DNA of 64,000 nucleotides from NCBI RefSeq assembly GCF_033153115.1, contig NW_026889803.1, forward strand, positions 13,702,001 to 13,766,000, read 5' to 3'. Positions within the stretch are counted from its first letter, which is position 1; every line of letters starts with the position of its first letter. The notes under the pieces are model-generated. The model made no database searches, was not told where the DNA came from, and saw only the letters and a list, made by a program, of their open reading frames with translations. Below, piece after piece: positions 4,143 through 48,699 of this stretch. The translations under genes and the position numbers were made by a program. Source of the stretch: Saccostrea echinata. Its lineage: Eukaryota.

Positions 4143-7100
4143 CTATGTAATATTCAACTCCTCCAAAACATCATCTCTATCTATACTCTGTAAGGCATCC
4201 ACAACACCTTGAAGTCTGTCTTTTCCCATGTGTTTCAGTTTCCTGAGAAGTTGGTAAGTAATTTCATAATGCCCTTCATCTTTGTAGTCCATTTCTACTT
4301 GTTCAATCTGAACCTCTTTGAAACCTAACCGTCGACAGAACTTTTTATAATCACGTCCCAAATTCTCTGACAGTTTATCACATTCTTCATCTGTTATTGC
4401 TCTGTCAGGTGCTGGTTAAAAAAGAAATAATTTTATGGAATCTCATTTTTTACTTAAGAATTATATATGATTTTTTTTTTGTTATTTATTAACTGTCAAA
4501 ACAAAACTTCTACAAAGAGAAACAATATTTCTAAAACTTGAGCTTTCATTCAAATTTTAAAGATTATGAGTAGATTGAAGATAAAAGCTCTGGCATTTAA
4601 GAAATATTATTCAAAGTCAATTCAACATTCTATGAAACTACATGCAAGTACATATACACTGCAAGAAATATAATATATGCTTGTGAAAATCCCCTGATAA
4701 CTCTTCATGTCAATCTGTATAGCTTTTTTTAAGGGAATTTCCATACATACTTAATTCATTATTTTCATTTTTCACTTTAGAAAAGGAAGTTCAATCTGTG
4801 TTTAGTTTTCCTTCCTTTATACCACTTTAACTATAAGTATTATTCCTAAAACAACTGTTTTCATATTTGCTTTGTAAAAATGTGAATCATCTGCAGACAT
4901 TTCTCAGGATTCAGTTTTCAATGAACAGAAACAAACATTTTGAATTTTGAATTCATTCTATCGATATCAAGGTAAAACAGCTGTAGAGTACTGTAGACCT
5001 TACTACAGTCACTATTGGTGCAAGTTTACAATCACTGAAAGAATTCATTCAAGCTTTTTTTTTTGCATTTAGACATGTATATACACCACTGACCAATAAA
5101 CTGTAAACTTGCACCAATAGTGACTGTAGTAAGGTCTACAGTACTCTACAGCTGTTTTACCTTGATATCGATAGAATATTATGTATATAATTGTTTTGAA
5201 AATTTTAAGGACAATTTAATTATTTTATTTTTAATTTATGACAATCCAGTATATCCTGTCAAAAACCCTCATACATGCAACATGCAGCACTGAGAAAGAC
5301 AGTCAATAAGAATATAGGCTGCTAACTGCCTTGCTGTTGAAAAAAATGGTTCTGAATGTAGACAGCTCACTCATAGATTAACGATGAGTGGATTCTGAGC
5401 TAGAGATATATAGCAATACTCCTTTTTTCTTGAAAAAAAATCGTCAATTTTTTTCATTTAACTTCAATTGAAAAAAAAAACATAAAAATCAATTATTTCC
5501 TGCCTTCCCCCAGTGGCAATTCCAAACAAACAATTTCAACGAATGGCCTAGACTACTTTTTTGTATAAAGAAATAATTTCAGTCTATAAATTTACATTTG
5601 TTTTAATGCAATAAAAACTGGTCCAGAATAAAATCTTTTGAAGAAAACCTACAACAAACATAATTAAACCCCACCCACAGCCCTTGAAGGAAAAGGTTAC
5701 ATCTAAGGGTTTACAACCAAAGGCTCCCTTTCATTGTTTGATTTTCAATATGCATATATATGTCACACAGAATGACTGCAGAAAAGCATTTGTCTGGAAA
5801 CTCATTGTTGGTTATGCATTCCCCTTTTTTCCATTTCCTAATTGATTGAAAAAGGAATAAAAGAAAACCATCTCTGATCCCAATATTAATGGGTAATCTT
5901 AAAATAAATAAAATGAGCAGAGGTTGAATGCAATGCCAAGAACATATATGAGACATATCACACCTTCGATCTTCTTCCTGTCCTTTTTCTTAGCTTTTTT
6001 CTTCCATTTTGAACTTGAGGCACCATGATCTCCCACAACCATGAAATTCTGATCTCCTATTTGTATATTTGGGAGCTTGTCGTTGGGAATTGTACCCAAG
6101 TGTAATGTGGTTCGACCTCCACCTCCTGAAAGGACAATAGAATGAATGTTGATAAATTAAATACTGTCTTTCAGAAAAAAAACCCTTAGAAGATGGACGT
6201 TTTAATCTTACATTGTTTTGTTAGTCTACATTCCAATATCATATACTTCATTTAACTACAGTCAAACCTCATTATCTCAAACTCAATGGGATCAAGGAAA
6301 AACTTCAGGATATTCTTGAGTTCAAAATATTGAGGGTTAAATACATAGAGGAAAAGGGGTTGGGATTTCCAAACGACTTCAACATATCTATGGGATTTGA
6401 CATGTTTGAGATACCGAAGTTCAACTGTACTAAATACTAATTCCAAGAAAACTCTTATAGTTCATTAAGTGTTGGATCTGTAAGTTTCCTTATCTTTCCT
6501 CAAGAGAAGTAACAAAATAGACCACAAAATGAGCTGAATTCAGACTGATGGACATCTCTATACTACATCAGTCTTAAGATACATATATCAATGTAATACA
6601 GACTCATATTCAATTAATGGAGGGAGGATCTACAAAACTTGGGAAAATTCATAAAAATTTATCTGGGAACTGGAATATGAAACAATTCAAATAGAATTTT
6701 TCCAATACACAAGTAATTTTGTAAGGAATTGTTGTCACAGTTATTGAACTTGTACACTCTTAATTTTCCAAAGAACAAAAAAAAAACCCACACTATCAAG
6801 TCTTTTAAATCAATCTACAGGCACTTCTAGTACATGTCTTTTAATGACCTCCTTTTATGAGCCTATGTTGTATACATATATACATCTTTAAAAACATCTC
6901 TCATATAACTTTAAGGTAATTTAACAATGTTTTATCTCCAATCTCCAACTGCCATGTTGAGAAAATGCACCTTGTGCATGACTGACAATAATAAATTTTT
7001 ATGTAATCGTAATTAGAAATGATATTTACTATGTTCATAATGGATGGTTTGAGGTTGATCACTACTTCTAGATTTCTTTGTTGAATCTGAAGTACCCGGT

Positions 7101-7618
7101 CTGGCATCTGTTTCAATCTGGTAAAGAAGAAATTTTGTTATGTGTTTGTTCATTTAAATACATAAGTGACAGTGTTCACAAAGTAACATAATTCAAGGAA
7201 TGTTCATTGGCATCCTCACAACATCAGGGGTCCTGAGTCCACACATGCTCTTGGAGCCCCTGAGAGACTTCATTTGATGTTTTATGGGCTTGCTTCTCTC
7301 ATTTAAAAGATTCAGTCAAATTGGGGCTTTCATAAACTGACATAAAACATAAACAGAAAGTAATCAGTTGACACCTCAATGCATGTACTATAGAAAGGCT
7401 GAATGTGATTGGTCAGGAGATAAGAAAACAATCAAGTTTTGTAACTCCCCTGAGAGACCTTGCTGCAGTCAGCCCATAAAATATTGAATGAAGTTTGTCA
7501 GGGGTCCCACGACCACATGTGAACTCAGGAGACTCCTGACATTGTGAGGATGGTTCATTGACTAAAAGCTATGAAAGAATATCACCTCTGATTGATATGA
7601 TGCTACGTCTTCTTCCAT
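4143..7618 (-). CDS. Imd-like / RIPK1-C-terminus-like adaptor with caspase site, RHIM and death domain (183 aa)
   Basis: Exons 7618-7586, 7117-7030, 6125-5964 and 4411-4143 join through GT-AG introns in consistent phase (552 nt): MEEDVASYQSE|IETDARPGTSDS...|...NIQIGDQNFMVVG...KWKKKAKKKDRKKIE|APDRAITDEECDKLSENLGRDYKKFCRRLGFKEVQIEQVEMDY...YQLLRKL...VVDALQSIDRDDVLEELNIT*. The last exon is a typical death domain. Confidence 0.8.
4955..5177. mobile_element. MITE/foldback element with perfect 76-bp inverted arms
   Basis: 4955-5030 is the exact reverse complement of 5102-5177. Confidence 0.8.
6259..6427. mobile_element. Tc1/pogo-type MITE
   Basis: TA|CAGTCAAACCTC...GAAGTTCAACTG|TA termini with a TA target duplication. 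Confidence 0.6.
7211..7552. mobile_element. MITE with long imperfect TIRs
   Basis: CATCCTCACAA...TTGTGAGGATG termini, with GTTCATTG on both flanks (7202-7209 and 7553-7560). Confidence 0.7.
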
Positions 7619-10213
7619 GAAGTCTGAAATTGTCTTGGAAGATGCTTTTACAGTTTGGAATGATGTGATACCTGTCAACTACATACAAGAATATCTTATG
7701 ATAATATATTACACACAATACTATTTATTGCATTGAAAACTGCTTGGTATATAAAAAGAATAAATCATTACTCTTTCATGTTACCTTTACAATTTAGATA
7801 TAACTTTCACAGCTTCTCTTCTGTGAATTTAGTTAGAATAATCTAACTGTGTCTCGGGACAAGCCCTCGATCACCACAGTTAGAATATGTCCCATATACT
7901 TGCAATGTAGCAAATCGGAGTGGATCCACTCCGAAATGATTTTGAAGAATACAAAAGGAGTTGCACTGAAAATAACTACCAAATTAATCATAACAAACCT
8001 TTTTGAGATTGTATATGCCTTTTAACCTAAAAAATAATCCATATAAATACGAAAATTCAACTCATTTTCTCAACGTTTTTTCCTTGCTTCAAATTTAACG
8101 CCATGTTGACATTCGGAACTCTCTGGATTGTTCATAGAAAATGCACAGAGTTCGAGTTATCGCCCGTGTTTATTTTGCTACATTGCGAATACACGGAACG
8201 AATTCTATCGTTAAACCGGGTCCGTAGGACAATATCATTTTAACGATAGAACATTCTATCTACTGTGAATTGTACACGTAAACATGTTATCTTAATATGT
8301 CTCTGTTTACCCCAGGGACATATATGCCTAGTATATTAATATATAGGACCCTTTTTATACCAAAATGATATTAGTCCTGCATTTGGAATTAAAATTAACT
8401 ATTAGCAACATAACAAGGTCAGCATTGATCTTAGCTAGATATTTAGAGTTGACAATCATGATCATAGGTTTTAAAATGCTCCGACGTTAGATGGTCCTTG
8501 CAAACATCGGAAAATCAAACACGTGTCTTGTTCTTTCATATATTTATCTCAAAAGAGAGAAAGCTGATAGTGATCCAGTCTACATCCCACTTCTTTCAGT
8601 TTTTACCAAACCCAGGAAAGAAATCAAAAACTTACAAATTTGTCGATTGTCATTTTCTAAAAGTCCTCAATCATAAGTGCCAGCGTTCACTTTCTCAAAG
8701 ACTTTTCTGTGTTTACAATATCAATATGAATGCCATTATAGAAATTATGTTACCTTAAAAAGATTGTGAAAATTACCAAAATCCAAGATCGCACAAACCG
8801 AAAGTAGAATGGGAAGGCGGTAAAAGAAGTTCGTCAGATGCGACAGGCGATAAAACTAGTACTCCTGATGCCTCTCTCAACTGAATTGCGTTTTGTTTTG
8901 TTTTTGTTTTGTTTTGTCATTTCTTCTGGGTTTGTGTGTGTGTGTGTGAGGGTGTGTGTGTGTGTGTTTAATGAGGGTATCTGTAAACTACGAAAAGAAA
9001 AGAAACAAAACGAAACGGAGAGGAAACAAAAAGAAACGAAGAAAAGAAACGAAACGTAGATTTCATCAGGAAAAAGATGAAAGGAAAAAAAGATTTATAC
9101 AAAAAGTACTAAATTTAAGATGGGACTTAATATAGTATTGATTTTATAGGTCAATTAAAAGCACATAATATATATGATTTTGTGTATACATCTAAAGTAA
9201 ATTAATTTAGGGGGGAGAGAGGCTTTGTTCATTGATAATTTGCGGTTCTGTAGTGCATGTGACTTGTTAATACCATTTGACTGGAGGTTAGAGGCTCTGT
9301 CAGTTTTTCATGATGGATTTTTTTGTGTTCAGTATATGCGTTTATTGACCAATCAAGGATCCTCGGGGGATACACGGTATACACGGTTTAGGTTTTTTTT
9401 AACTACTAACAACTTCACATAGACTTTGAAACAGGAGGGGGTGATGTGCTCCCCCCTTTATTCCCCAAAACACATTAACATCTTAGTCCTTTCCCACTTT
9501 TTTCCCACAAAAAATTACTCGAATCTTGCACCCTTTCCCCCATTTCTTATATGTCTCGAAATTTTATAAAAATAAAAATAATTGCCATCAAACACCCTCC
9601 CCATCATATTTACACTTTTTTTAATTTCATGCATGTGCTTATCAGTGGGAAGAGCAAACTTCACTATATACTTATCGATAAAGGACACCCCCAACCCACA
9701 CACACACACAAACACACTGATAAGAATGCCAGATGCTTTTATATAACCCATGAAATCGATATTGTGATAATTTCAGTCTTGATAAAATAATCATTATAAA
9801 TTTATATATATTTTATTCCTTTTTTCTTCTTCTTATTTTTATTTACTTTTCATTTCTTTTCCTTATGTTTTTTCCTCTTTTTGTTTTCTTTTCGTTTTTT
9901 CACTTTCTTTTCTTTCTTTCTTTTTTTTTCGATTCTCTTCTTTTCGCAGTTTACAGAGTACACCATGACAGTTTACGTTTCTGGCCTGAAACTTTAGAAG
10001 ACTTTTCTTCCGATTTCAACCGAAAAAAAAAATATCTGGCTGATCTGAAGACAATTTTAAAGTAAAAAAAAAAATTCAATATCTATTTATTTATCCGTTA
10101 TCATGTTAGAATTTCTCAGTTAGTGTCACTTCTTTTAAACTCTTTCTTATTCATTTTTCTCTCTCCAAATTTTGGGGCTGAAATAAGATTTTCCAAAAGG
10201 GTTTTTTAAATAA

Positions 10214-12250
10214 ACTAGAGGCCAAATGGCTTTAACGGTCACCTGAGTATATCACAACCCTCAGTCCCTGTAAAGGATCTATGGAATGGCAATTTATAAA
10301 ACAAAATAAACTGACAGATGAAGTTGTATTGCTCAAAACAAGAGAAATATCATAATCAGGGATCGGCAAAATAATTAGTATGGTAATCAACAACAAATCA
10401 GAATGATGTAGATTTACTTGTTTGTATGTGCCAGTGCTCTCTAAACCAAACTAACATAATTGTGCTTTAGCAACATAGTAAGCCTAGCTAGTGGCCACTG
10501 CAATGGTATCTCTTACTATTAATCATCTATTATTTCAAAGTCTACATGGCCATTAAAAACTGTAAATGTGCTTTTTGTATATTAGACATTAAAAATTCTT
10601 GTATAATTCTTTTATTCAATATATCTATCAGCTACATTATTTACAGTGATTAATTACCATACGTGAATAATAATGGGCAATAACTCCTCTTATTTCCATA
10701 TATGATCATAATAGAGCCCCGCCCTAACCCCAGACCCCTGATCCAAGGGCCATGGATTTCACAATTTTGGAAGAAGCACTCATGCTCATCATACAACTTT
10801 GTCTGCCAAAGTTTAATACCCATGTAGGAGGAGAGAGATTTTCAAAGAATTAATACATTTTCATCATGTGATCAAAAGAGTCCCGTCCTAACCAGAATAC
10901 AAGATCCAGGTTCCATGAATTTCACAATTTCGGAAGAAGCACCCTTGTTCATCATAACCATGCACTTGTTTGTCTACTAAATACACAGGAGCAGAAGAAA
11001 ATTTTCAGAGAATTAATACATTTTCATTACGTGATCAATAAAGCCCCCTTGCTCCACAACCCCTGACCCAGGAGCCATAAATTTCACAATTTGGGGAGAA
11101 GCCTCTTGCTCATCATATTTATGTGCTTAGTTTGTCTGCTAATTATACAGGAGGAAAGATTTTTGTATGGAATTAAAAATTATACCCAGGAGCAGAAGAA
11201 CTTTTCAAAGATATAGGTGATTCCACTCTCGTTTGATGTCAACAGTTTTTGCAAAATCTTTCATTAATTTAACAATATTAATTGAACAATATAAATATAT
11301 TTTTTAGAAGAATGTTTTTAAATAGGTTGTTTAATGAAAGAATTACTAGTAATAGAATAATATTCAGGAAGCAATTTCATTTTGGGGAGGGGGGACAACC
11401 AAACTTATTTCAGTTTGGGTGGGCACTACCAAGCAAAAATTCCTTGGCAAGCCCCCCCCCCCCCCTTTACTATAAATAATAATTTATTTACTCTTTAAAA
11501 ACATGCAAAGGGCAATAACTCTTATCCACGCATCTTTTTTCATGTATTACTTTAATGGATTCCCCGATATCCACAATCTATATATATTTTCTAAGTTACA
11601 ATTATTTGGGAGTTTCATTATTAAAATTATGTCATTTGAGCAAGTTTAATTGATTTTGATGATGCTATTAACCAAAAATGAGAGTTTTTTTTATTCTTAC
11701 AGATATACTTCTGTTTATCTTTGTCTGAGAACTTGAGCGGGGGACCTGTACATTTTTGTGATTAGTATTATAGTTAAACTGTATTCGGTGGAAATTAAAG
11801 CAGTTTTTAAACGTAGAACCCATAAAAGTGTAAGTATGAACTCACCGTAATGTATTTTCAACATACAAATATATGAACAATAGAGCCCCGTCCTAACACC
11901 AGACCCCTGACCCCGGGGGGGGGGGGGGTTGAAGAATTTAATGCACTTTCACTATATGATCTATAGAGGCTCACCCGAACACCAGAACCCCTAACCCTGG
12001 GGCCATGTATTTCACAATGACTGCTTGATATCCAGGGGTAAAGATTTTTTTTTAAAGATTGCATTAATTTTTATGGTTTTGGTCCCACCCCTCAGGCCCC
12101 AGGAGGACAGAAATTATCAAGTTTTGTTCCTTTTTACCCATAGATGCTATATATTAAAATTGAATGAAATTGGGTCAGGGTTTTTCAGAAAAGAAGTTCA
12201 AAATGTTCAATTAAATGCTAACGCACGACACACGAAGACGAACAAAAACA
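10214..12250 (+). mobile_element. Non-autonomous Helentron (HINE)-like element with an internal ~165-bp satellite-like array, 3' end degraded
   Basis: Starts ACTAGAGGCC...AACGGTCACCTGAGT and contains repeated GCCATGAATTTCACAATTTTGG/AGAAGATTTTCAAAGA units. Same family as 37549-39553. Confidence 0.7.
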
Positions 12251-12521
12251 GATAAATACTGAAAATTGAAATAAGCAAAACTAATTTGTTTCAGAGGTAG
12301 CTTCAATTTTTAACATTCACGTTTCTACAAATAGTAAATTTTCTTATGGTTACCATGGAGATACTTTAAAATGAATGTTGCTTAGCAGATTCAATTACAC
12401 ACCTTTACGTCATGAAAATGAAGGTATTCAGATAAAAAAAAAAGGCTTTTAGTCCAATATTCAATACATGTATTTATATGCAACAAATAAGCTAATTAAA
12501 ATTAAAGACCGCTGAATTTAA

Positions 12522-12839
12522 AATAATTTTAAGGGAACGTCTAAAATATATATTACTCAGTATTGCATGACAATTCAGATAGATTCGTCCTATAAAAAAT
12601 GAGAACTTAAGATGGGACTTTTTATTTATAAAAATGATTGATCACACATTTACAAAATGTATTGGAGTAAGTCCGACGACGAAGAAATTATTTTAAAGAA
12701 ACGTCTAAAACATAAATTACCCAGTATTCAATGACAATTCTGACATATTCGTCCTACAAATAATGAGAACTTAAGATGGGACTTTTTATTTATTAAAATG
12801 GCTTCATCACACATTTACAACTGAATGTACTAGGAGTAA
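12522..12839. repeat. Imperfect ~165-bp direct tandem duplication
   Basis: AACGTCTAAAA...ATGAGAACTTAAGATGGGACTTTTTATTTAT...TGGAGTAAG occurs twice. Confidence 0.7.
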
Positions 12840-12973
12840 GAAATTCAGATTCAGCTCAGTAGAGGAACACCTGCAAGGTATAGTGTAAATTGAACCAAAG
12901 TTCGATAGCTGAATTCCTTTGGATCAGGTAAATTGATTGTTTGTCGAAAATCAATCATCGATCGACTTCTGCG

Positions 12974-19645: not shown

Positions 19646-22600
19646 TCAATCCTTACATATTGAGGAGGAGAACGTTTGCTGTTTTCTTTTCTGATTCACT
19701 TTTTGTTCACGACTTACATTTATAGATTGTTCTCCCATGCTCATAGCTTCCCTTTTTTCCCTATCATTTGTTTTAGCCATATTTCTCATGATGCTGATTG
19801 GATCTAAAAATCACCAATAAATGCATTGACACTGTTATTAATTACTAACAGGTTAAAAAAAAAGTTTGTTCTTTTAATCAGCTAAACTTGGATATGTTCT
19901 TAAGCTCACTTTTTGCCAGAATCTGTAAAATAAGAGATAATATTTTTGAAAACAAAGATGCTGGTCCTTGGTAACATTACATGTATGTATGAAATCTAGG
20001 GCAGATGACAGACCCTTTCACTAATACACCCACAGTAGAATAATTAATGTTATATATATTGCCTTTTTTGTACGAATACAAATACATGTAAATATTACAG
20101 AGTGTTCCCCTATTACCATTCACAAGTAGGTCAACGGCTGTTTGTAACAAAAATCCCTATATTTTCCAACAAAGAAAAATTGCATTTTTTCAAGCCCTGA
20201 TTGCTTCTGGTACATGTACATATTTTAACTGTAAAGGCAAGCTTCCATAAACCTAGGAAGTACCCAGTGTGAAATTACTTAAGAAATGAATTTAATTTTT
20301 GAAGATTCATGAGGACATAAACTACGACGCTTTACGCTGGCATATTTCATGAAGCGTGTTTGTGCTTCATGATAAATATGCCGGTGTGAAGCGTCATAGT
20401 TCATGTACCTCATGAATCTTCAAAAATTAAATTCATTTCTTATATTTACATTATTTTTTGATGAATTGCCACAAATTACGCCATTCAATTGTCATTTTTA
20501 AAGCAAAACAGTTTGCACTATAGTTTTGACTTCAAGTATGGTATTATGACCTAACAATGGATAAATTCATGCTCATCCATGGTAGTTCATGAGAAAATGA
20601 ACAGTCTTCTAATTTGCAAAGAATCTGAGGAAAAATATTTGGAAATGTATATATATTTTTATATACTAAGTCATAATGTCATACATATTCCATTATGTTC
20701 TTTTTAAATAAATGCTGTGAATCTCCTGATACTTCACCTTTTCTAGAAGGTTTGAACATTTCCTTGATTCTATGAAGCCCTCTTAATCCCCCTCCCATTG
20801 TCGGATGATCGTCATCCTCATCGCTGTCCATCATGTGTCTCCTCATCATCATCGGGTCAGGACCTCCCATCATGTCCAACATCATCATCATGTCATGGTC
20901 ATGAAACATCCCCATTGGATAACCTCGCCTACTGTTATAGAAAAAAAATCTAGTCTTTAATATACATGAACATGTAATTTTTTGTCATGATAAATAATGA
21001 TCATTCCAACAAACACAAGATGCTTCAATTTTTCCTAATTTTCCATTAAAAATAACATTTCAGCTGCTTTTTCCAATTTGAAAATATGGTATGATATGTA
21101 CTGCACATACAAACTTTCTGTCTCTTGTGTTTTTCTCTCCCTACCTGCTTGGCTTTGTTATATACCCTCCACCTGGTAAAGGATACTTCTGTTTGGCATC
21201 CCCAAAGACCTTCATCAACAACTCTTGATTTTCAGGCCTACAAAACAAAGATTGATTTGTTAACATTTAGTATTCATCTATAAAGAAAGAAATTATAGGT
21301 CTGTTAAGCAACGGTACACATTACTCTACCAGAGTGTACTGTGGAATCATCATTGTTCACAGGGTCCAATGACTCATGAATTTACATTCCTGTAAACAAT
21401 AACTTTGTGTTTCCTTAATAGTTTATTGAATCTCCTGTAAATAAAAGTTACCCATGGAATTACGTCACCAAAATTTTGGTTGCCCATGACCATCGATCCC
21501 CACAAATTGAAATGATTCCACAGTGATTTTCTGAATTAATGCACTACATCTGCAGCACTTACTTCATCAAATCACTAAGAAGACTATACTCTGTGTGTAG
21601 CAGGGCAAGGAGAAGGACAGGATCTTTAGCCAGTTTGATGACCTCTGGGTCTAAGGTCGTAAGGCTCAATGGATTACTTTCTGGGGCTGCATCGTTGCTT
21701 CGTAATAAAGTTTCAAACATCCTAGGATTTTCTAAAGCTTTTTTCACTCTGTAGTAGTTTCCTGCATAAGAATTACAAATGGATTAAAATAAGAGATAAA
21801 GAGTTTGGTATTCAAAGGCAGTTAATTTTAACATTCTTTTTAACATTGAATAAGCTTTTAATATGACCACATTTTCTTACCACCCTTCTTTAGTTCAGTA
21901 ATATGTGGATGATCCGCAAATGTTTTTTCCACTCTCCTTCTACGTTCTGTTCGTGGAGTTTCTTGGTTCCTGTGATTCCAGCTATCAGTTTTACCATATC
22001 GTCCAGCCCGCGCTATGTTGTCCAGTTCCTTCGCATTTGCTTCTTTCCATGCACGTCCTCTTTCCTTTGCCATCCTCAAATGTGTTCCACTTATATTACC
22101 CCAAAAGTCATTTCCAGGACACAAAATCTCTTTTTTAAATAGTTCATCCTCATCTAAATATCTCTTTAATTTCTCATCATCATTCAATATTGCACTATAC
22201 TTAGAATCAAGACTAAAGAAGCTATTACAATAATTAGTACGGGCAACAAGTAAAGCAAGAGGGTCTCGCAATATTTTCCGAAATGTCTTTTCAGCACTTG
22301 ACATCTCCAATTCTTTTTTAAACAACACTGATTGTACTGGTCCCTCATCTTCAGTTTCCATGACTTCTGGTGTCTGAGGGCCTTGAGAGATGGACTGTTC
22401 ATGTGTACTTGTGGAAGCAGATCTACTTGTTGAAGCTGATGAACTTTGATCTGAACCTTGCTGCTTTGGAGAAGTGTTCTGAGCAGGTTGTGGTTCATTT
22501 ATATGATCAATGTGATTAGTGTAGATGTAAATTAGGTTATCTGGGGTCTGAAAGAATTTGAACAATTGCAAAATATTTTTAAACCTTTAATATTTCTTAA

Positions 22601-25617: not shown

Positions 25618-25872
25618 CATGTACCGGTACACATTTCATAATACCCCAGTTCTGACCTGCTGTAGCTTCACTTACATATGTTTAACATTTAGATTGCTGT
25701 AAATTATCTCATGAACTGATGAATGCAAGATGCCTTAGTTTAAAACATTTGACCTTGCATAAAACAGATGAATAAAAAAATGCATCCAAAAAATATACAT
25801 ACCGATTAACAGTACATGAAATCATGCAACAGAAGTAAACAATCGCAAATTCAATTCTTTTGACTTTGGTTT

Positions 25873-25899
25873 ACTTTCACATTTCACTGGAAAATCCCC
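25873..25899 (-). promoter_or_regulatory. Adjacent kappaB and IRF-E-like sites in the RIPK/NUDCD1 bidirectional promoter
   Basis: The - strand reads GGGGATTTTCC (25899-25889) immediately followed by AGTGAAATGTGAAAGT (25888-25873). A likely kinase 5'UTR donor CG|GTATGT lies at ~25802. Confidence 0.5.
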
Positions 25900-29100: not shown

Positions 29101-32100
29101 ATCTACAGTAAGCACAGTGAAAACTGTCTAATCCAACACCTGTGCAATCCGTTTCACTGTGGAATCCAACATTGATTTTCATTTTAATTCTGTCTATTCT
29201 GACACAAAATTTGTCTCTAGTGCATGTCAGACAGGTTTCACTGTAAGGTGACTTTGTTTGTTTTCTTAAATCGAATAAGGAGGGTGTTGTCATATTTCTT
29301 GTCTTGCTTTTATTTTGATTTTGAAAACAATCTGAAAAATGTCAATTGTGCTAAATTTTAAATGCGCTAGCTATTTAATGGTGTAATTGATGTAGTTGAA
29401 TTCGATACATGTACTAGCTACATTTACATTTAAAGGGAGAATGTAAACCTCTGCTTCTTTAAAATGATATTTTTCCCCAAAATTCAATGAATGTTTCAGA
29501 CCCCAGGATTACGAAACTGACTCAGACTTTCAAAACTTAACTCGTCTGTTCTATAAGTGTAAACTATTAAAATTTGTGATTTATTAATTGCACTTAAGAT
29601 ACAAAAGTTCTATCTTTTACCAGGGAGCCGGTGTCACCATTACCAGTAATGCTGGAATCATTCCTGATCTGAACAGGCAGAACTCAGTGAATGGCCGACT
29701 AAATGCCTCCCTGTGTTTTGTATCAGAAGACATGGCTGTGGTTGGAGATGGTGCTGGAAAGCTTCATTTGTATTTCACTGGAGCTAGGAATTGTTCACAG
29801 CTCTGGAAGGTTTTTAAGACATTTAATATTGTATATGGTCATAGCCTTGGCTTGATATGAAGTCATGAATTAAGCCACTGGTACTAGTGTAAAAAAAAAT
29901 AAAACAGTATTATGTCATAATGAGGTCTACATGTATTTCCTTATAAGAACTTTTAAGTCGGTGCCATAATTAGGGGGTTAAATTTCACATTAATATTTCC
30001 AGTACATCAAGTAATCTTATTCAGATTTTTCGACTTTATGCAGATTGTATTTTCTAATGATCCACTGGAGAACAGCACCCCATTCCTGTTGGTAGATGCA
30101 GTGCTGCATACAGTGGACAGTGCATACAAACTGGAATGCCTGTGTGTACATGTGGTAGAGTGTGATGCTGAGCAGAAAGACAAGTACAGAGCTACACATT
30201 TAACAGTCATGGAGTGGATTACAATATCCTCAGGTAAGTATCCATTTTGTGTGTATACAGGAGCCTGTTTTTGTAACTGAATAAAATTCAACATTAACCT
30301 TAAAAACATAACTTGATGTTTAAGCTTCAAAGAATATATTTTTTCCTCTACGTTTTTCACTTTTTTGTAATATTCTAGACAAAAATTCACTTTTTACAAA
30401 AGCTACATATTGTTAAGGGTTACCATTTTTTCATTTGATTAAAAAGAAATTAATTGATGAAATGAACTTTAAATTTTTATTCACAGGAGATAAAATTACT
30501 TGGGTGCAAGAGCGAAGTCGACGTCTTTATGGGAGAAGACCTTTTGATTATGCTGCCTTCAGTAAGGACGGATCTGCTCTGATTGTTGGGGCTGAGGCAG
30601 ATTTTGTCTTTGAGTATGACTCACTGAAGCCAGTTAGAGAAGAGGAACCCATGGAGGCAGAAACCAATGGACAAGGTCAGGCTTCAAGTTTAGAAACTCT
30701 ACATTGTCAGAAAAGCATGAATATATTGGAATTTCCCATTATCTTATCTGAAATGATTATATTTTATCAAAATGGTATGAAAAAATGCATGTAGCAGTGA
30801 TTAACCAGTATTTAACACCATGAACCACATTTAGGCATTACGGGGCATTTTTTAAGGAATGTCATGTAACACGCAGATGGATGTAGTGTTAAACAAGTGA
30901 TTTACCCTGTTTGTAGAAAAGCCAGAACCTGAATACACCTGGTCACAGAATAGCGAGGAAGTGACTGCATTGTTCACTTTACCCAGTGGTCTGACCAAAG
31001 CAGATGTGTACTTCATATTATCACATGACTTCATTGACTTCGGAATCAAAAATGGAAACCATTTGTTGAAGGGTCAGCTATTTGGAGATATAGATGTAGA
31101 AGGTAGCACTTGGAAAATTCAAGACCAGAGGTAAAAGACGTAGAGAAACTTGATTTGCTAATTTTTTGTCCATTATTTAGTCCCAAAATATATATATTAC
31201 ATGTACTTAGCCTATATGTTGTGGTTTTGAGAAAATGAGATTCATGTTTTTGGTCATTATTTTTATAAACTCCCAAAACAGGGTAGAGTTGACTTTGAGT
31301 AAATGCGAGGAGCAGGTGTGGTCACATATTGTAGTGGGAGACAATCGTGGTGAAATGACTATGGATCCAGCAATGATAGCTCAGATCCACGAGAGATTGG
31401 CAGGTCTTACCTCCGACCAGCTGGTGAGTACCATATGCAGTAAAACACGCTTATAATGAAGTGCCAGGGATGGAAGATTTTGCTTCGTTGTAAGCGTAAT
31501 TCATTATATTCATTAGATTCATGATGTATTTTAAAGTCACAGGAAATGAAAAGCACTTCGCTGTAGGTGTCATTTCATTAATATAAGTGTGTTTTACTGT
31601 ACATTATAAAAGTTGTGTGTGGTTTGTCAAGTTGTTCTTTTCGATGTCTTCTCTTAAATCACTTTGCAAATTTCAACTACTTGAAAAACGTAAATGCAAA
31701 AAAAAACAGTTTTTAATTATAAGGTGAAAATTTTGCCCCAATGTTGTAGAATCCTGATCCTGAAGAGGGGAAAGAAAAACCATACAACTCACAACAGCTC
31801 GAGGAATGTGATGTATTCCCAGAGGAATCCTCTTCTTTAATGAGGTTTGATGGAGATACACATAAAATAACACATCAGGTAAGCTTGATAGGTACAGTGT
31901 AGTTGCATTATCATGTGTATATTTACAGCTATAGGGAATAAAACCATTTCAATTTTAAATTGTTAATTTTTTTTGCATGATTATTATGTAATTTTTTATT
32001 CTTTCATGAAAAGCTTTCTTTCTTTTTAATTTGATAGACAAACACAGGGAGCCATCAGTTTCTTTTCTCTGCCTCGCTTGATAAAGACAAATCCTCTGCT

Positions 32101-32490
32101 CTCTGTTTACGTCATGATGTTGATGGCATCATGTGGCAACCAGAAAACCAGTGCAAAGAAACAGAACTTCCATGGCAACATGTGGCAACATTCAATGCAT
32201 TTGGTTATGTTCAGGCCTCTAAACAAAATCGAAAATTTACCTTATGTGCTCCAGACTGTTCATTTGCTGTTATTTGTGACATATGGCGACATGCCTATGT
32301 ATATAGACAGCCAGCACCTATTGCAACTCCAGTCAGAAATCGTAAAGATGGACGGCAAATTAGCCATGTTGCCAAGCAACAAGTGGTTTCACTGGAGTGT
32401 ACAGATCACATTGTTGGTATAAAGGCAACATCACAGAAACTCTATATTTTGACTGAATCTGTGTTACATGCTGTTCAAATCAGTTCATAA
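26151..32490 (+). CDS. NUDCD1: NudC domain-containing protein 1
   Basis: Exons 26151-26262, 28956-29107, 29624-29809, 30044-30233, 30487-30675, 30917-31130, 31282-31423, 31750-31878 and 32038-32490. N-terminus [31 protein letters not shown] domain YTWSQ..., C-terminal HDVDG..WQP and [15 protein letters not shown]. Confidence 0.93.
27708..28666. mobile_element. Non-autonomous hAT-type element nested in a HINE fragment in NUDCD1 intron 1
   Basis: TAAGGATGTCAA...TTGACATCCCTA TIRs, an exact 8-bp TSD TTTATTAT (27700-27707 and 28667-28674), and subterminal TCGACTAT/CGAATA repeats. Confidence 0.8.
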
Positions 32491-35400
32491 GAATACATGT
32501 GTATGCATGGCAAATTCAGTTCTTGGCCCTCAGTTTCAAAAACAAGCATGTTGACTTAATTTTCACACATTCATGAAAAACATGCTTTTGATCAGAAAAA
32601 TCTTTACATTAATCTGGTTTAGAATCATTTTTAGCCATCAATACATGTATCAATTTTGTTGTTTTCAAAACAAAGTTTTTGTTAATTTTAATATAGCAAT
32701 GAAACAATAAATAAAACTGTTTACTAATGTTGTGTGCAATTTTATTTGATGAGCATTTAAAAGTGGAATGTATATTTTACAGTCCAAGCACTGGGCGTGT
32801 TTATGTGCATCAAACACAATTCTAACAAACTGAGGAACACTACAAGCATAATAATCTATGATTAAAAATTAATTTGGTCATTATACATATTTGTGTTGCG
32901 TAACTTTTTGTAGCTCTGTAGAACAGTATCTGGGATAGTCTGTGGAATCTGAAAACCTTTTTGTGGATAAATCTGTATTCTATGTAGACATCCCATCAGA
33001 GCACTAATAACATCACGCAGTGATCCCACTTCTGTATTGGGGTAACTGAGCATTGGAATTGGCGGTGAAGTCACCAAAACTTGCAAATCAGGAGTTTCTC
33101 TGAAGCCTGGCCATAGTTTCATGAATGTGGCATAAACTCTTCTTTCCATGTATGGCATCTGCACCAAAAGTATCTTTTTTTTTTGGTAATAAGTTTCTTT
33201 GTTTCAGGATATTGTATGAAAAGCTTACATTTTCACCTGTATTAGTAGCTTTGGGTTCCAACAGAATTTTATTTTTGTTGACACCTAGAGATATGGCCCT
33301 ATCTTTAAATATCTCAGCTTCAGATTTTTTCCATTTCCCTACATGGAACACAAAACAAATATATATAAAGTCAGGTTATTCTGCATTTTAAATGACATCT
33401 ATATTCATAAATTCAATAAATGAAGAAGAAGGAATTCACCTCTAGTATTTGCACCTTCCTTTCCTGAGAAGAGAATCCATGGTGCCATTCCTTGACGCCA
33501 CAACATGGCAGCATGTTCAACTGTTCGTAAGTCATGGTTTCCTAGAACCAATATAACATCACTCTGTAATGAAAATCATTTAGTTTATTAAAAAAAATGA
33601 CCTGCTGATAGTTTCTAGATCTATATATTATTTTCGTGGTGGTGATGGTGGGGGGGGGGGGGGGGGTTGTTACACCATTTCTGTGAAGAACAAAATCAAT
33701 CCCTTAAAATTTTATGAACTTTATTACCAGATATACTCGTGCTTCTGAACATGCATGACCACTTAAAATACATATATGCAGCTGATAGATGTAGGATAAT
33801 CCGAGATTCCTCTGACTCTAACCCTTATCTCGGTGGAGATTCGGCTGGGCTAGATATTTGGTCTGCTTTTATTTTGTGACATGTGACTCTAACCCCCGCA
33901 CATGTCACAACATATTTACACCCACTGAATATTATTTCCTTTATTTCTTATAAAAACCATTGCCGTTAATCAGTCCATATTAAAACAACACTAAGCAAGC
34001 CACCAGCATAGATTTCTTAAGCAACGGCTGTTCTATCAATTAAGCATACAATGGCATACACACCTATAATACAATATTTAACATATTTAATTTACTTCGA
34101 ATGTTTTTTTTTTATAATGATATAGATATAAACAATAAAATGTCTTTCTTTCTTTTTTAGTACGGGAATTAACGTTGCACCTATTGCAGAAAAAATTCAC
34201 ATAACCCGCGTAAGCGGGTTATGTATTTTTTCTGCAACAGCTGCAACATTAATTCCCGTACTAACAACCAAAGTTTAAATATAAATGCGGGGGTTAGAGT
34301 CACAGACCTGTTCAGGTCCAGTACATTTAGCTACGTAGCTAAAATTACCTACCGTAGCTTTATTTACCTACCTCAGGTAGCTTTATTTAGCTATTTCAAG
34401 ATAACTTTTCACAATTTTGCTTTTCATTTTAAAAATACAAAAAAAAAAACGCAAATATTAAATGACTACTATATTTATACTAGGGATTATATAAAAAGCA
34501 ATCCAAAGCAGGGATAGTTCTAACATTGCTGCGTTTGAACACTTTTAAGGAAAAGATGTATTTCCATTGTTTGAGTAACTGTACACCACCTTGTGTGCAA
34601 TGGGGCGTGGATAAGTATGATTGCCTCTCATTGTGTTCATGTTAACCAGAACTAGTTTTCTTTGTTATTTCATTTAAGAAGTAACTGTTTGGTCATAAAT
34701 TAACTGTTGTATATAGCCCAAAACTTTTAGAACTTTGATTGCGCAGAAAAAGACACATCTCCAAGAGTGATTTTTTCAAGAATTGTTTTCAGATGAGTTC
34801 AAAGTTGAAAATTATCACTGCATCAAAGTGCAGTATTCTGCACTTTCTGGGGGAAATGCTAATTTAAGAAATAAGTTTGATTTAGTAGCTAAATAAAACT
34901 ATACTTCAGGTACGTAAATAAAGCTATGTAGGTAATTCAAGCTATGTAGCTAAATCTAGTGACTGTACCAGACCTGCTGGGGTACTACTAAACAGAGAAC
35001 TCTAAAGAACCCTAGAGAACCCTAATGATTTTTTAGCAAAATTTGCTCGTTCTTGCGCATTCAGGAATCACTGGATATTTATTACGTGACTATGGTTATG
35101 TATCTTTAATTATTTCTTGTTTGTAAATGAAATATTTATGTTTTAAATTACCAATATATCATACAAAAACAAAATAAGATTTAAAAAAAGAATATTATGC
35201 CAGGTGTTATGCTTATTTTCAATGGAATACTAATGTATGAAGACTTCATCATACTTTGTGTAATTTTAATTATTTTTTCAAATAAGTTTACGCCAAGTTT
35301 CGCGGCTTTGCAGGCCATTTAAAAGTGTCCGAAAACATATCATGAAAATTAGTTATATGAATCCTCTACCTTCGTTTTATATTCTCTGAAAATTTTATAA

Positions 35401-45111: not shown

Positions 45112-46189
45112 GAACCACGAATCAGAAAATATCTATATTTATATTTCAGTTAATGAATACTCTGTTTATTCTTTCATGGGAATGTTGGGAATTCTCGTGA
45201 ATTCAACTTAGTCAATAGCATAGATCTTCAATTTTTAAGCAGATTTAACATTTGTGTTTTTGGGTGATTTTCTTTTAAATATAATTCAATTTTTCCACAA
45301 AATTTCGCATTTAGGAATAACAAGTTTTAATGAGTTCCGTATTTTACGAAACTCCTCTCAGTTTCTCTTTTACGTACATGAGGTTTTACAAAAGGTGTAG
45401 AAAACGATGAGACATTCAATTGATTGTTACAAATGTATAGGAAATAAGTCCTTTTAACTTCTGTGGACTTTTTCTTCTCTAATAATTTATTCAGATATAG
45501 ATTTTTAAAAGGCCTAAATATTAACTATTGCATGGATCTAAAAATACCGCAGTTGAAGTCATTTTCCATGGAAAACATCTTTCTCTTTTTTTTCAATTCT
45601 ATCCTAATTGACTGGTATATCAAATAAACACCTTTATCTGCTTTTTTTTAATTATTATTTTATGATTGTAAATTGTTATGATGTTGATTAAATAAATACC
45701 TATTGCCAATTATTCAATTTCAAGTCCTATATTCGTATATTGGTACTTTGTAATCACAAACTTTAAGGATGTACAACACAACACCCCCCTCCCAAATTCC
45801 TGTCGTTTAATTTTCGTTATTTTTTTATTTATTTTATACATGACTATATCCACTATGTGTATGCACATTTTGGACAACTTAATCGTTCGAGTCGTATTTG
45901 GACAGGAATTAAGTTCCAAAAGTTACCCCCTTTAGCTGTCCACGAGGAGAAGCAAGAACAGGTTTCCATAAGACTGTTTTTGGCCCATAATGAACTTTAA
46001 ATTAATTTGTTTAGTAATGTCTAGTAATGTTTCATCTGTTATATTTTATAATTTATTTGCAGAACCAACGCATATTAGTCACGTGAGTCCCTCAATGGTC
46101 CCTCTAAAAGCATCTAAGAGGGTTATGGCGATTTATTACATGTAGTAGACTATTCATTGTAAAAAACCAAAGAAAGATTAACAGTATAT

Positions 46190-46937
46190 CCATACAACTC
46201 ACAACAACTGGAGCAATGTGACATATTCCCAGACGAATCCTCTTCTTTAATGAAGTTTGATGGAGATACGCAATAAAATTACACATCAGGTAAGCTTGAT
46301 AGGTACAGTGCAGTTGCATTATCATGTGTATATTTATATAGCTATAAGGAATAAAACCATTTCAATTTTAAATTGTTAATTTTTTGCATGATTATTATTT
46401 ATTTTTGTATTCTTTCATTAGAATATTTTTAAACTTATCAGGGACCTATATACCTATATAGTATATAGGTCCCTGAACTTATAGACAAGCACAGGGAGCC
46501 ATCAATTTCTTTTCTCTGCCTCGCTTGATAAAGACAAACCCCCTGCTCCCTGTTTACGTCATGATGTTGATGGAATCATGTGGCAACCAGAAAACCTGTG
46601 CAAAGAAACAGAACTTCCATGGCAACATGTGGCAACATTCAATGCATTTGGTTACGTTCAGGCCTCTAAACAAAATCGAAAATTTACCTTATGTGCTCCA
46701 GACTGTTCGTTTGCTGTTATCTTTGACATATGGCGACATGCATATGTATACAGACAGCCAGCACCTATTGCAACTCCAGTCAGAAATCATAAAGATGGAA
46801 GACAAATTAGCCATGTTGCCAAGCAACAAGTGGTTTCACTGGAGTGTACAGATCACATTGTTGGTGTACAGGCAACATCACAGAAACTCTACATTCTGAC
46901 TGAATCTGTGTTACATGCTCTTCAAATCAGCTCATAA
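46190..46937 (+). pseudogene. Duplicated 3' fragment of NUDCD1 (part of exon 8, the intron and the last exon)
   Basis: High similarity to 31780-32490, beginning mid-exon. A 1-nt insertion creates TAA at 46274-46276. No upstream exons are duplicated. Confidence 0.85.
46439..46475. mobile_element. 37-bp palindromic micro-MITE with a 7-bp TSD
   Basis: AACTTAT-CAGGGACCTATATAC...GTATATAGGTCCCTG-AACTTAT; absent from the paralogous site at ~32030. Confidence 0.75.
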
Positions 46938-47318
46938 GAATACATGTACATGTATATGCTTGGCAGGTTCAATTCTTGGGCTCAGTTTCAAAAACAAGCG
47001 TGTGGGCTTAATTTTCACCTATTCTTGAAAAGCATTCTTTTACTCAGAAAAAATCATAACATTTGTCCGATTTTTAATCATTTTTTATCCATCAGTACAT
47101 GTATTAATTTTGTTGTTTTCAAGGCAAAGTTTTTTGTTAATTTAATATAGCAATGAAATAATAAATGAAACTTGTGAAATAATGTTGTGTGCAATTAATT
47201 TGATGAGCATTTAAAAGTGGAATGTATATTTTACAGTCAAAGCACTCAATGGGGTATTTATGTGCATCAAGCACAATTCTACTCCACTGAGGAACATTAA
47301 AAGCATAATTATCTATGA

Positions 47319-48435
47319 TTAAATATTAATTAGGTCATTATACATATTTGTTTGGAGTAACTTTTTGTAGCTCTGTAGAACAGTATCTGGGATAGTCTGT
47401 GGAATCTGAAAACCTTTTTGTGGATAAATCTGTATTCTGTATAGACATCCTATCATAGCACTAATAACATCACACAGTGATCCCACTTCTGTATTGGGGT
47501 AACTGAGCATTGGAATTCGTGGTGAGGTCACCAAAACTTGCAAATTGGGAGTTTCTGAGAAACCTGACCATTGTTTCATAAATGTGGCATAAACTCTTCT
47601 TTCCATGTATGGCATCTGCACCAAAAGTATCTTTTCTTTTGGTAATAAGTTTCTTTGTTGCAGGATGTTGTATGAGAAGCGTACATTTTCACCTGTGTTA
47701 GTAGCATGGGGTTCCAACAAAATTTTATTTTTGTTGACACCTAGAGATATGGCCACATCTTTAAATATCTCAGCTTCAGGTTTTGTCCATTTCCCTACAT
47801 TGAACACAAAACAAATATATAGTCAGGTTATCAAGCATTTTAAATGACAGCTAGATTCATAAATACAATGATTGAAGAAGAAGGAATTCACCTCTAGTAT
47901 TTGCACCTTCTTTTCCCGAGAACAGAATCCATGGTGCCACTCCTTGAAGCCATAAACTAGCACCATGTTCAGCTGTCCGTAAATCATGGTTTCCTAGAAC
48001 CAATATAACATCACTCTGTAATGAAGACCGTTTACTTTAGAAGAAATTACGAAAGGGGGGGGGGGGTCTGTTAAGAGATTCGTGGTGCCTGGACACTATT
48101 TCTCTCAAGAAAGAAATCACCTCATTCTGAATCTTTTTAATAAAGTTTATTACCAGATATGCTCATGATTTTAATCATACATAGCTACTTAAAAAATATA
48201 TGTAGGTGAAAGGATTATTTTATACCTTTGAAATTTCATGTCCAAGAATCAAGTAATCCCATATTTTCTTCGCCAATAACTTGTGATCATCAGGAACAAA
48301 GCTACTGCTTTTAGTGCAATGTAAATTCCTCCTCAAAGCACATTTAAAAGAACTAGAGATCCAACGAATAACCCATGGAGATTGGTACAAGTGAAAGTTG
48401 TTCATCATGCTTACGCATGACGTCATTACTTTCAT
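47319..48435 (-). CDS. DUF218/YdcF-like (SCO4629-like) protein, copy B, intact (~269 aa)
   Basis: Exons 48435-48226, 48015-47892 and 47794-47319 join in frame (810 nt): ...KKIWDYLILGHEISK|SDVILVLGNHDLRTAEHGASLWLQGVAPWILFSGKEG...PEAEIF...ATNTGENVRFS...QMPYMERRVYATF...YPQKGFQIPQTIPD. The start could also be the Met at 48408. Confidence 0.85.
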
Positions 48436-48699
48436 TTTTTAACGAAAAATAAATCGTTCATTGTGTATGAAAGAATATATATTGTCAGTAGGCATTTATA
48501 CATAATTTAGTCGGTGTTTTTGAACATTTAAAACAGAGTTAACTGCATCAATTTGGAAAGTTTTCTTCAAAATGAAAAAATGCATCTTTGCTAATTTTAA
48601 TATATTACGGCGACAATTCTACGAACGAGTTGTTTAAGAAATGAAAACCCCGCCATTTTCAATATTCAAAAAAATCCTTTAAATCATATAATAGTTAAT

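Follow-up and report, generated by a model that had tools for sequence, protein, structure and literature searches.

RIPK1, as described in vertebrates and in molluscs (e.g. zebra mussel, PMC12119088; Mytilus XP_063440460; Mizuhopecten XP_021356903), carries a RIP-type kinase, a caspase-type site, an IQIG RHIM and a death domain, in this order, on one polypeptide. Arthropod Imd, on the other hand, is a kinase-less protein of about 200 aa, in which an N-terminal caspase-type site followed by Ala, a RHIM-type motif (of the cryptic VxxG form) and a C-terminal death domain are arranged in a row; it acts between PGRP-type receptors and Relish/NF-kB. Imd and RIPK1 share domains. Imd is said to have no clear mammalian orthologue, and a caspase cut is described to expose its IAP-binding N-terminus (PMC10268257). 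According to a paper of 2023, no Imd adaptor was then known from molluscs (PMC9835746). Gastropod proteins named "protein immune deficiency-like" (Haliotis XP_046375274; Gigantopelta XP_041376099) are stand-alone RHIM-death-domain proteins, encoded on the same scaffold as a RIPK1-type kinase; the Haliotis adaptor displays VETDA near its N-terminus.

In the 64,000 nucleotides of Saccostrea echinata DNA analysed here (the window), all parts of RIPK1 are present, but they are distributed over two gene models. Both genes are located on the minus strand, with the kinase gene upstream of the adaptor gene, and the order proposed in an earlier note on this DNA (kinase, IETD site, RHIM with IQIG, death domain, all on one strand) is borne out. 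The coding part of the first kinase exon (25803–25825, MISCTVNR) is joined via a GT/AG junction (25803/24555) to the kinase-domain exons (24555–24382, 24190–23890, 23700–23487 and 23371–23225), in which GxGxxG, VAVK, the catalytic loop HLDLKADN and DFG are intact. The middle exons (23129–23032, 22547–21881, 21761–21563, 21237–21145 and 20931–20738) encode a helical middle region, followed by a Met-rich stretch. The last coding exon of the short isoform (19906–19922, DSGKK and stop; AATAAA at 19541) completes a chain that reproduces XP_061163410 exactly. DSGKK-type endings are also found in kinase proteins of S. cucullata and Magallana. Phase-1 donors are located at 23487, 23225, 21881 and 20738 (with exon 7 ending at 21563), which includes the three named in the earlier note (20738, 21881 and 23225). 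Motifs of kB and IRF-like type at the 5′ end of the kinase gene occur in numbers that chance would produce in the window (5 versus a mean of 2.3, and 1 versus 0.8).

The long kinase isoform uses an exon at 19718–19803 (minus strand; exact match to XP_061163408), which is entered through an alternative acceptor lying 119 nt downstream from 19922 and left through a phase-0 donor. It terminates with its own stop in an exon at 12974–13402 (AATAAA at 12794 and 12626), which displays 51% identity to S. cucullata and an equivalent stop position. The last intron of this isoform, opened by the 19718 donor, spans a TFAM-like gene nested in antisense, as had been proposed for the region between the two halves. 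This gene is an open reading frame without intron (15288–16562, plus strand; 424 aa, Pfam HMG_box, exact protein on record). The nine best PDB sequences are all human TFAM (best E 3.6e-13, residues 83–288), to which the tandem HMG boxes are closest in this search; the protein is longer than human TFAM. The long isoform was absent from the earlier note; it crosses the TFAM-like gene and stops at 12974, short of the adaptor.

The adaptor gene, likewise on the minus strand, has an upstream exon region at 8636–8760, with an ATG at 8653, a donor at 8636 and a candidate donor at 8754 preceded by an in-frame TAA. The next exon (7586–7678) has acceptors at 7678 (phase 0) and 7671 (phase 1) and an ATG at 7618. 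The annotated isoform X1 (ATG 8653, donor 8636, acceptor 7678) matches XP_061163415 exactly, while joining 8754 to 7671 would set the TAA immediately before the junction. The following exon (7030–7117) encodes IETD-ARPG, invariant in 7/7 aligned oyster sequences, which we take to be a caspase-8-type site and an IAP-binding-motif-like stretch. The RHIM exon (5964–6125) encodes PNIQIGDQN; the tetrad IQIG is invariant in all seven aligned oyster adaptors and absent from oyster kinase proteins. The last exon (4143–4411) encodes the death domain (Pfam PF00531) and the stop. Compared with PDB entries, the death domain is closest to that of RIPK1 (E 6e-12), followed by TRADD (2e-3) and FADD (0.035), and the kinase ranks human RIPK1 (7e-40) before RIPK3 (1.6e-36), RIPK4 (1.4e-35) and RIPK2 (4.5e-34); RIPK1 is hence the best PDB match for both halves.

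A fused gene in relatives, which the earlier note had suggested looking for, was found: the mussel and scallop orthologues of the oyster kinase are single proteins of 1035–1217 aa with the order kinase, helical middle region, LETDA, RHIM and death domain. The motif IETDA/LETDA is conserved in oysters, mussels and scallops, and is a predicted caspase site between kinase and RHIM. The middle region, common to the oyster kinase and the fused proteins (72–100 bits), is an extra element of the mollusc proteins compared with RIPK1. A resemblance to an STI1/DP-type domain was considered, but the region has no match in Pfam or in the Atlas and no clear fold match. A structure model in which both units folded as one piece (pLDDT 70.7, pTM 0.39) yielded no Foldseek match at E ≤ 0.001, and the best Z was 4.4 (VIA), with Sti1 DP2 at 2.5. 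The kinase search returned 18 matches at E ≤ 1e-20 among 1444 candidates. A death domain is present in 8 of them, including those from Mytilus, Mizuhopecten, Ylistrum, Ruditapes and Mactra (five of the eight), and in none of the 4 oyster matches. In the kinase tree (40 rows), oysters and Pinctada group together (100/99) inside a clade with the fused mussel and scallop proteins (99/97), so that the oyster kinase nests among fused RIPK1 proteins and not away from RIPK1-like kinases.

In Saccostrea and Magallana the two halves are separate models: a kinase of 697–874 aa with its own stop, and a kinase-less adaptor of 183–209 aa with IETD-ARPG, RHIM and death domain. The Magallana kinase cluster was represented by 15 of its 320 members, and such clusters can hide longer ones. 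For Ostrea, an adaptor-only model is in evidence. Accessions of kinase and adaptor are near-consecutive, on a contig of equal listed size, in S. echinata, S. cucullata (192 kb contig) and C. angulata. Additionally, contigs of 2.2–3.7 kb encode kinases ending in DS[GD]KK and contigs of 1.0–2.4 kb encode the whole adaptor of 183–184 aa; judged from their size, these would represent spliced RNA.

Mussels and scallops have fused orthologues, the oyster kinase is nested within this group, and oysters have two adjacent models. On this sequence evidence, the kinase gene and its RHIM-death-domain neighbour probably derive from a single RIPK1 of an ancestral bivalve, which was divided in the oyster lineage and whose halves are annotated today as two transcription units. 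The fission envisaged in the earlier note is thereby supported. The data fit a direct split and, equally well, a partial tandem duplication followed by reciprocal loss.

A different origin of the adaptor would be an older paralogue: a molluscan ancestor would have carried a stand-alone Imd-like gene linked to its fused RIPK1, and oysters would have lost the RIPK1 tail, leaving the paralogue as neighbour. Such an arrangement resembles that in Haliotis (2 species) and Gigantopelta, where a kinase gene and a separate RHIM-death-domain gene (166–231 aa) are on scaffolds of equal listed size with accessions some 45–110 apart. However, by pairwise score the oyster adaptor is closer to the fused tails of bivalves, which carry LETDA, a pre-RHIM segment similar to that of the oyster adaptor, RHIM and death domain. 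Among 28 C-termini tested against the oyster adaptor, the 15 best were 13 fused proteins and 2 fragments (69–105 bits), and the best stand-alone adaptor reached 67 bits, 2 bits below the weakest fused tail. The adaptor tree, of the kind suggested in the earlier note, is weak: the best trees, which took in no named arthropod Imd, place oysters with mussel fused tails (89/77 and 83/74), but no starred branch links the oysters to these tails, and support for oysters with pteriomorphs is 48/46. In the AU test, oysters grouped with gastropod-type stand-alone adaptors pass (p-AU 0.234), and oysters with a second stand-alone family give p-AU 0.063. Against the paralogue, gastropod-type adaptors form a clade of their own (97/94). 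Among the 150 matches listed, most of them unnamed and 9 of them looked up, this clade had no stand-alone member under a mussel or scallop name. We regard the paralogue as an unlikely origin. Counting against the split, no consistent similarity of the long-isoform tail exons or the adaptor N-terminal extension to the fused linkers was detected: of 48 comparisons, 1 exceeded z = 3, and it did not recur in the sister species. Metagenome scans with the TFAM-like protein and a mussel-type tail for the gene neighbourhood in other bivalves returned no locus.

According to a further reading, a regulated splice (20738 to 7671, or 19718 to 7678/7117) would still produce a full-length RIPK1 of about 890–920 aa as a functional minor isoform. 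The joins 20738 to 7671 and 19718 to 7678/7117 are indeed in frame. The phase-1 acceptor at 7671 with 17 open codons ahead of the ATG at 7618 had been reported correctly, as had the in-frame direct splices, which would give open frames of 475, 730 and 892 aa. In each of the two Saccostrea species, the N-terminal extension of the adaptor is an open frame (20/26 identical). Nevertheless, the caution that phase matches can arise by chance was justified, with 18 of 50 pairs of kinase donor and adaptor acceptor in frame. Of 6352 windows of 17 codons in local non-coding sequence, 31% are free of stops, as are 43 of 143 that follow a YAG; the phase match was rejected as evidence for read-through, being at chance level. 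The openness of the 17 codons is also explained by isoform X1, in which they are coding. As for splicing across the TFAM-like gene, the annotated long kinase isoform does cross it, but ends in the kinase's own exon (13402–12974), about 4.2 kb before the adaptor upstream exon, which places the break between 12974 and about 8800 rather than at 20738. The kinase ends in a stop and the adaptor begins with a start codon of its own, and no protein among the records searched supports continuation into the adaptor. A death-domain query among proteins of 155–2000 aa gave 5 matches from 66 candidates, all of 183–209 aa, and a kinase middle-exon query gave 4 from 2311, none with a death domain (blanks that the search itself grades as weak). 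No oyster polypeptide combining kinase, RHIM and death domain (the definition used in PMC12119088) was found in the protein searches. A search of sequencing runs listed 5 with matches at a share of 0.28–0.33, none on record as RNA, which speaks neither for nor against such an isoform. We consider it very improbable. An artefact, i.e. a whole gene broken by the gene caller, is hardly credible: all named oyster models come from automatic annotation, but the identical split recurs in two Saccostrea species and Magallana (with the adaptor-only model in Ostrea), short assembled contigs encode identical ends, and the stops are present in the window sequence itself.

Returning to a split of one ancestral RIPK1, the route may have involved a kinase-only 3′ end, as in the 803 aa isoforms annotated in two Mytilus species, and a new internal promoter, followed by loss of the joining splice. 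Such a split would permanently fix the cut predicted for a caspase-8-like enzyme at LETD in the fused protein. By analogy with Drosophila Imd, the adaptor would polymerise via its RHIM and use its death domain to bind a FADD-like partner; cleavage at IETD would expose ARPG to an IAP ligase, and the adaptor would signal to NF-kB. Devoid of RHIM and death domain, the kinase half would no longer enter those complexes in cis. In gastropods, unlike oysters, the kinase retains a RHIM-like tetrad, and its death domain is degenerate or absent. In favour of the split, a kinase-less C-terminus of zebra mussel RIPK1 activates NF-kB in a RHIM-dependent manner (PMC12119088).

The oyster adaptor shares with arthropod Imd the kinase-less layout, the N-terminal caspase-type site followed by Ala, and the size, while its RHIM is canonical. 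Its Atlas feature neighbours are clusters of 206–222 aa death-domain proteins, mostly arthropod (0.91), which are not named Imd. Going by sequence, the adaptor is likely derived from a bivalve RIPK1, so that the resemblance to Imd would be convergent in form. Rather more tentatively, we hypothesize that RIPK1 was split more than once in molluscs (in oysters and, independently, in gastropods), each time yielding a free kinase and a RHIM-death-domain adaptor that is gated by a caspase and works as a true Imd equivalent. Oysters, with both halves still adjacent, would then display how arthropod Imd emerged from an ancestral RIPK1.

No description of an oyster RIPK1 split was found in the literature searched, which takes in few subscription journals, nor any match in 12 of the 31 supplementary files of PMC12119088. 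Work on "oyster RIPK1" may cover one half only, and the halves need a joint assay. The oyster protein ChRIPK1, reportedly described by Yang et al. in 2024 (PMID 38950760), may be the kinase half, going by the title, and the CgRHIM-containing protein, said to be described by Liu et al. in 2024 (Dev Comp Immunol 159:105226), may by its title be the adaptor half. With a lineage in which RIPK1 splits into a kinase plus an adaptor of Imd shape, the idea of Imd as a kinase-less RIPK1 can be tested, mussels and scallops serving as fused controls. The gene split, if true, would show how Imd-type adaptors can arise from RIPK1.

The minus-strand kinase gene comprises common exons from 25825 to 20738 and two alternative 3′ ends (19922–19906, and 19803–19718 plus 13402–12974), and these exon chains match database proteins. 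The adaptor gene lies downstream on the minus strand (8653–8636, 7678/7671–7586, 7117–7030, 6125–5964, 4411–4143). XP_061163410 (708 aa), XP_061163408 (874 aa) and XP_061163415 (209 aa) of Saccostrea echinata are identical letter for letter to exon chains of the window, and XP_061163416 gives the same reading as the 183 aa adaptor chain begun at ATG 7618. The TFAM-like protein (424 aa) is encoded by an intron-free plus-strand ORF (15288–16562) and carries additional sequence outside its TFAM-matching part; a candidate 5′ UTR intron lies near 14947–15234.

The earlier note had proposed either hidden read-through splicing or fission of an ancestral RIPK1, to be examined by separate kinase and death-domain trees. 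Of 1444 candidates in a kinase-domain search, 18 proteins reached E ≤ 1e-20. A death domain is present in 8 of the 18 (Mytilus, Mizuhopecten, Ylistrum, Ruditapes, Mactra, plus three others) and in 0 of the 4 oyster matches. The other 6 are Pinctada (no tail; an automatic model that may be incomplete), Sinanodonta (RHIM and LETDA present, no death domain by Pfam), Haliotis (with a tetrad resembling RHIM and a degenerate tail), Gigantopelta, a 475 aa fragment and an unrelated kinase. The kinase tree (40 rows, built without RIPK2-5 outgroups) joins oysters and Pinctada at 100/99, within a 99/97 clade holding the fused mussel/scallop RIPK1 proteins. These share a middle region with the oyster kinase, whose catalytic motifs are intact. 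The closest solved-structure relative is RIPK1 for kinase and death domain alike. Judged by sequence, the ancestor of the oyster kinase is a fused protein.

The middle region (21145–22547, minus strand; residues about 390–640 of P0006, XP_061163410) is all-helical, holds two LRDP/AKDP-type units and is conserved among the RIPK1 orthologues of molluscs. It matches nothing in Pfam or Atlas and resembles no known fold clearly. Just 5′ of the first annotated kinase ATG, a CpG-rich stretch holds a candidate pair of kB-type (25889–25898) and IRF-like (25870–25883) sites on the minus strand, and counts of such sites across the window are no higher than chance.

The fused tails present, in order, LETDA, a pre-RHIM segment similar to that of the oyster adaptor, RHIM and death domain. 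The best 15 of 28 C-termini compared with the oyster adaptor belong to 13 fused proteins and 2 fragments, and two adaptor trees place oysters with mussel tails (89/77 and 83/74). In the window the adaptor is the next gene on the same strand as the kinase, and in S. cucullata and C. angulata the two proteins carry almost consecutive accession numbers and their contig has the same listed size; this position favours a split. The adaptor is thus likely the tail lost from RIPK1, although this link is the weak point of the argument. An older stand-alone paralogue may instead have supplied the adaptor: the AU test does not reject a grouping with the stand-alone adaptors of gastropod type (p-AU 0.234), and the best stand-alone adaptor scores only 2 bits below the weakest fused tail. 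However, the make-up of the 15 best-matching C-termini argues against such a source, which we regard as unlikely. Taken with the fused relatives, the kinase tree and the adjacent genes, the adaptor matches bear out the fission alternative, and RIPK1 has probably split into the oyster kinase and adaptor genes.

In two Haliotis species and Gigantopelta the kinase has a degenerate tail, and its scaffold also bears a second, short gene encoding RHIM and death domain, which in Haliotis goes under the name "protein immune deficiency-like". This arrangement reflects either parallel separation or the older paralogue. The best trees set a second stand-alone RHIM-like/death-domain family (proteins P0123, i.e. 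Pinctada KAK3091125, P0141, P0143, P0151, P0157) apart from the oyster adaptor. Several mussel RIPK1 proteins (P0053, P0067, P0081) show two LETD sites about 35–40 residues apart, and some mollusc models (P0070, P0096, P0099) are RHIM-containing isoforms without death domain.

Splice phases and the 17 open codons at the adaptor acceptor are as the earlier note described. They are no evidence for read-through: the reading frame is kept in 18 of 50 donor-acceptor joins from one gene to the other, and stops are missing from 31% of nearby non-coding stretches of 17 codons. The annotated adaptor isoform starting at ATG 8653 uses these codons as coding, and joining candidate donor 8754 to 7671 puts an in-frame TAA immediately ahead of the junction. 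An annotated long kinase isoform, overlooked in the note, does splice over the TFAM-like gene; its stop at 12974 lies about 4.2 kb short of the adaptor's upstream exon. No fused oyster protein was found by a death-domain query (155–2000 aa, 66 candidates; 5 proteins, every one 183–209 aa) or a middle-exon query (2311 candidates; 4 proteins, none with a death domain). Kinases encoded on contigs of 2.2–3.7 kb end in DS[GD]KK, and contigs of 1.0–2.4 kb encode complete adaptors, one of them present on 262 contigs; from their size, we infer that these contigs are spliced RNA. Since this search evidence is protein-level and clusters (15 of 320 members listed) may conceal longer members, a rare read-through, or a fused paralogue elsewhere, may exist; functional read-through into the adaptor is nevertheless very improbable. 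S. cucullata has a model with the same long kinase isoform. An annotation or assembly artefact is scarcely credible.

Directly 5′ of the first adaptor exon lies an imperfect inverted-repeat element (8920–9960; arms 8921–9099 and 9684–9957), which could be a MITE-like insertion tied to the adaptor promoter. Between the genes, repeats with unit lengths of about 145 and 163 bp form satellite-like arrays at 13620–14510, 10700–12030 and 12520–12820. A gene pair occurs twice in similar form (about 29500–33400 and 46000–48500), each time with plus-strand exons (presumably NUDCD1-like) and minus-strand exons (presumably DUF218-like), which suggests local duplication. Plus-strand exons at about 49700–62700 belong to a kinesin-like gene, which we take to be KIF15-like.

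Yang 2024 reportedly treats ChRIPK1 and necroptosis deficiency, and Liu 2024 a CgRHIM-containing protein; one half each may be covered, so the unusual layout may already have been published in part. In the literature searched we found no account of an oyster RIPK1 split. Within the portions of the sources drawn on here, oysters have RIPK1 annotated and lack RIPK3 (PMC8917759), and Imd was not found in molluscs (PMC9835746); portions of PMC13506858, PMC7179693 and PMC9334734 complete this basis.

Two Mytilus species have annotated 803 aa isoforms that consist of the kinase part alone, a hint that a 3′ end of this kinase-only type predated the split, and the intron-free TFAM-like ORF could be a putative insertion favouring the break. 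The kinase half would have no tether in cis. IAP-binding ends follow an Ala-x-Pro pattern, and IETD-ARPG is unchanged across all 7 oyster adaptors aligned, 12–19 residues from the short-form start. This site may be likened to that of Drosophila Imd, where, in the part of the source used, DREDD cleavage makes an IAP2 site, leading to ubiquitylation and TAK1/IKK activation (PMC10268257). The zebra mussel RIPK1 C-terminus, kinase-less like the oyster adaptor, is described in an excerpt as activating NF-kB in human cells in a RHIM-dependent manner (PMC12119088). On these grounds, the oyster adaptor may be read as an Imd-like NF-kB scaffold.
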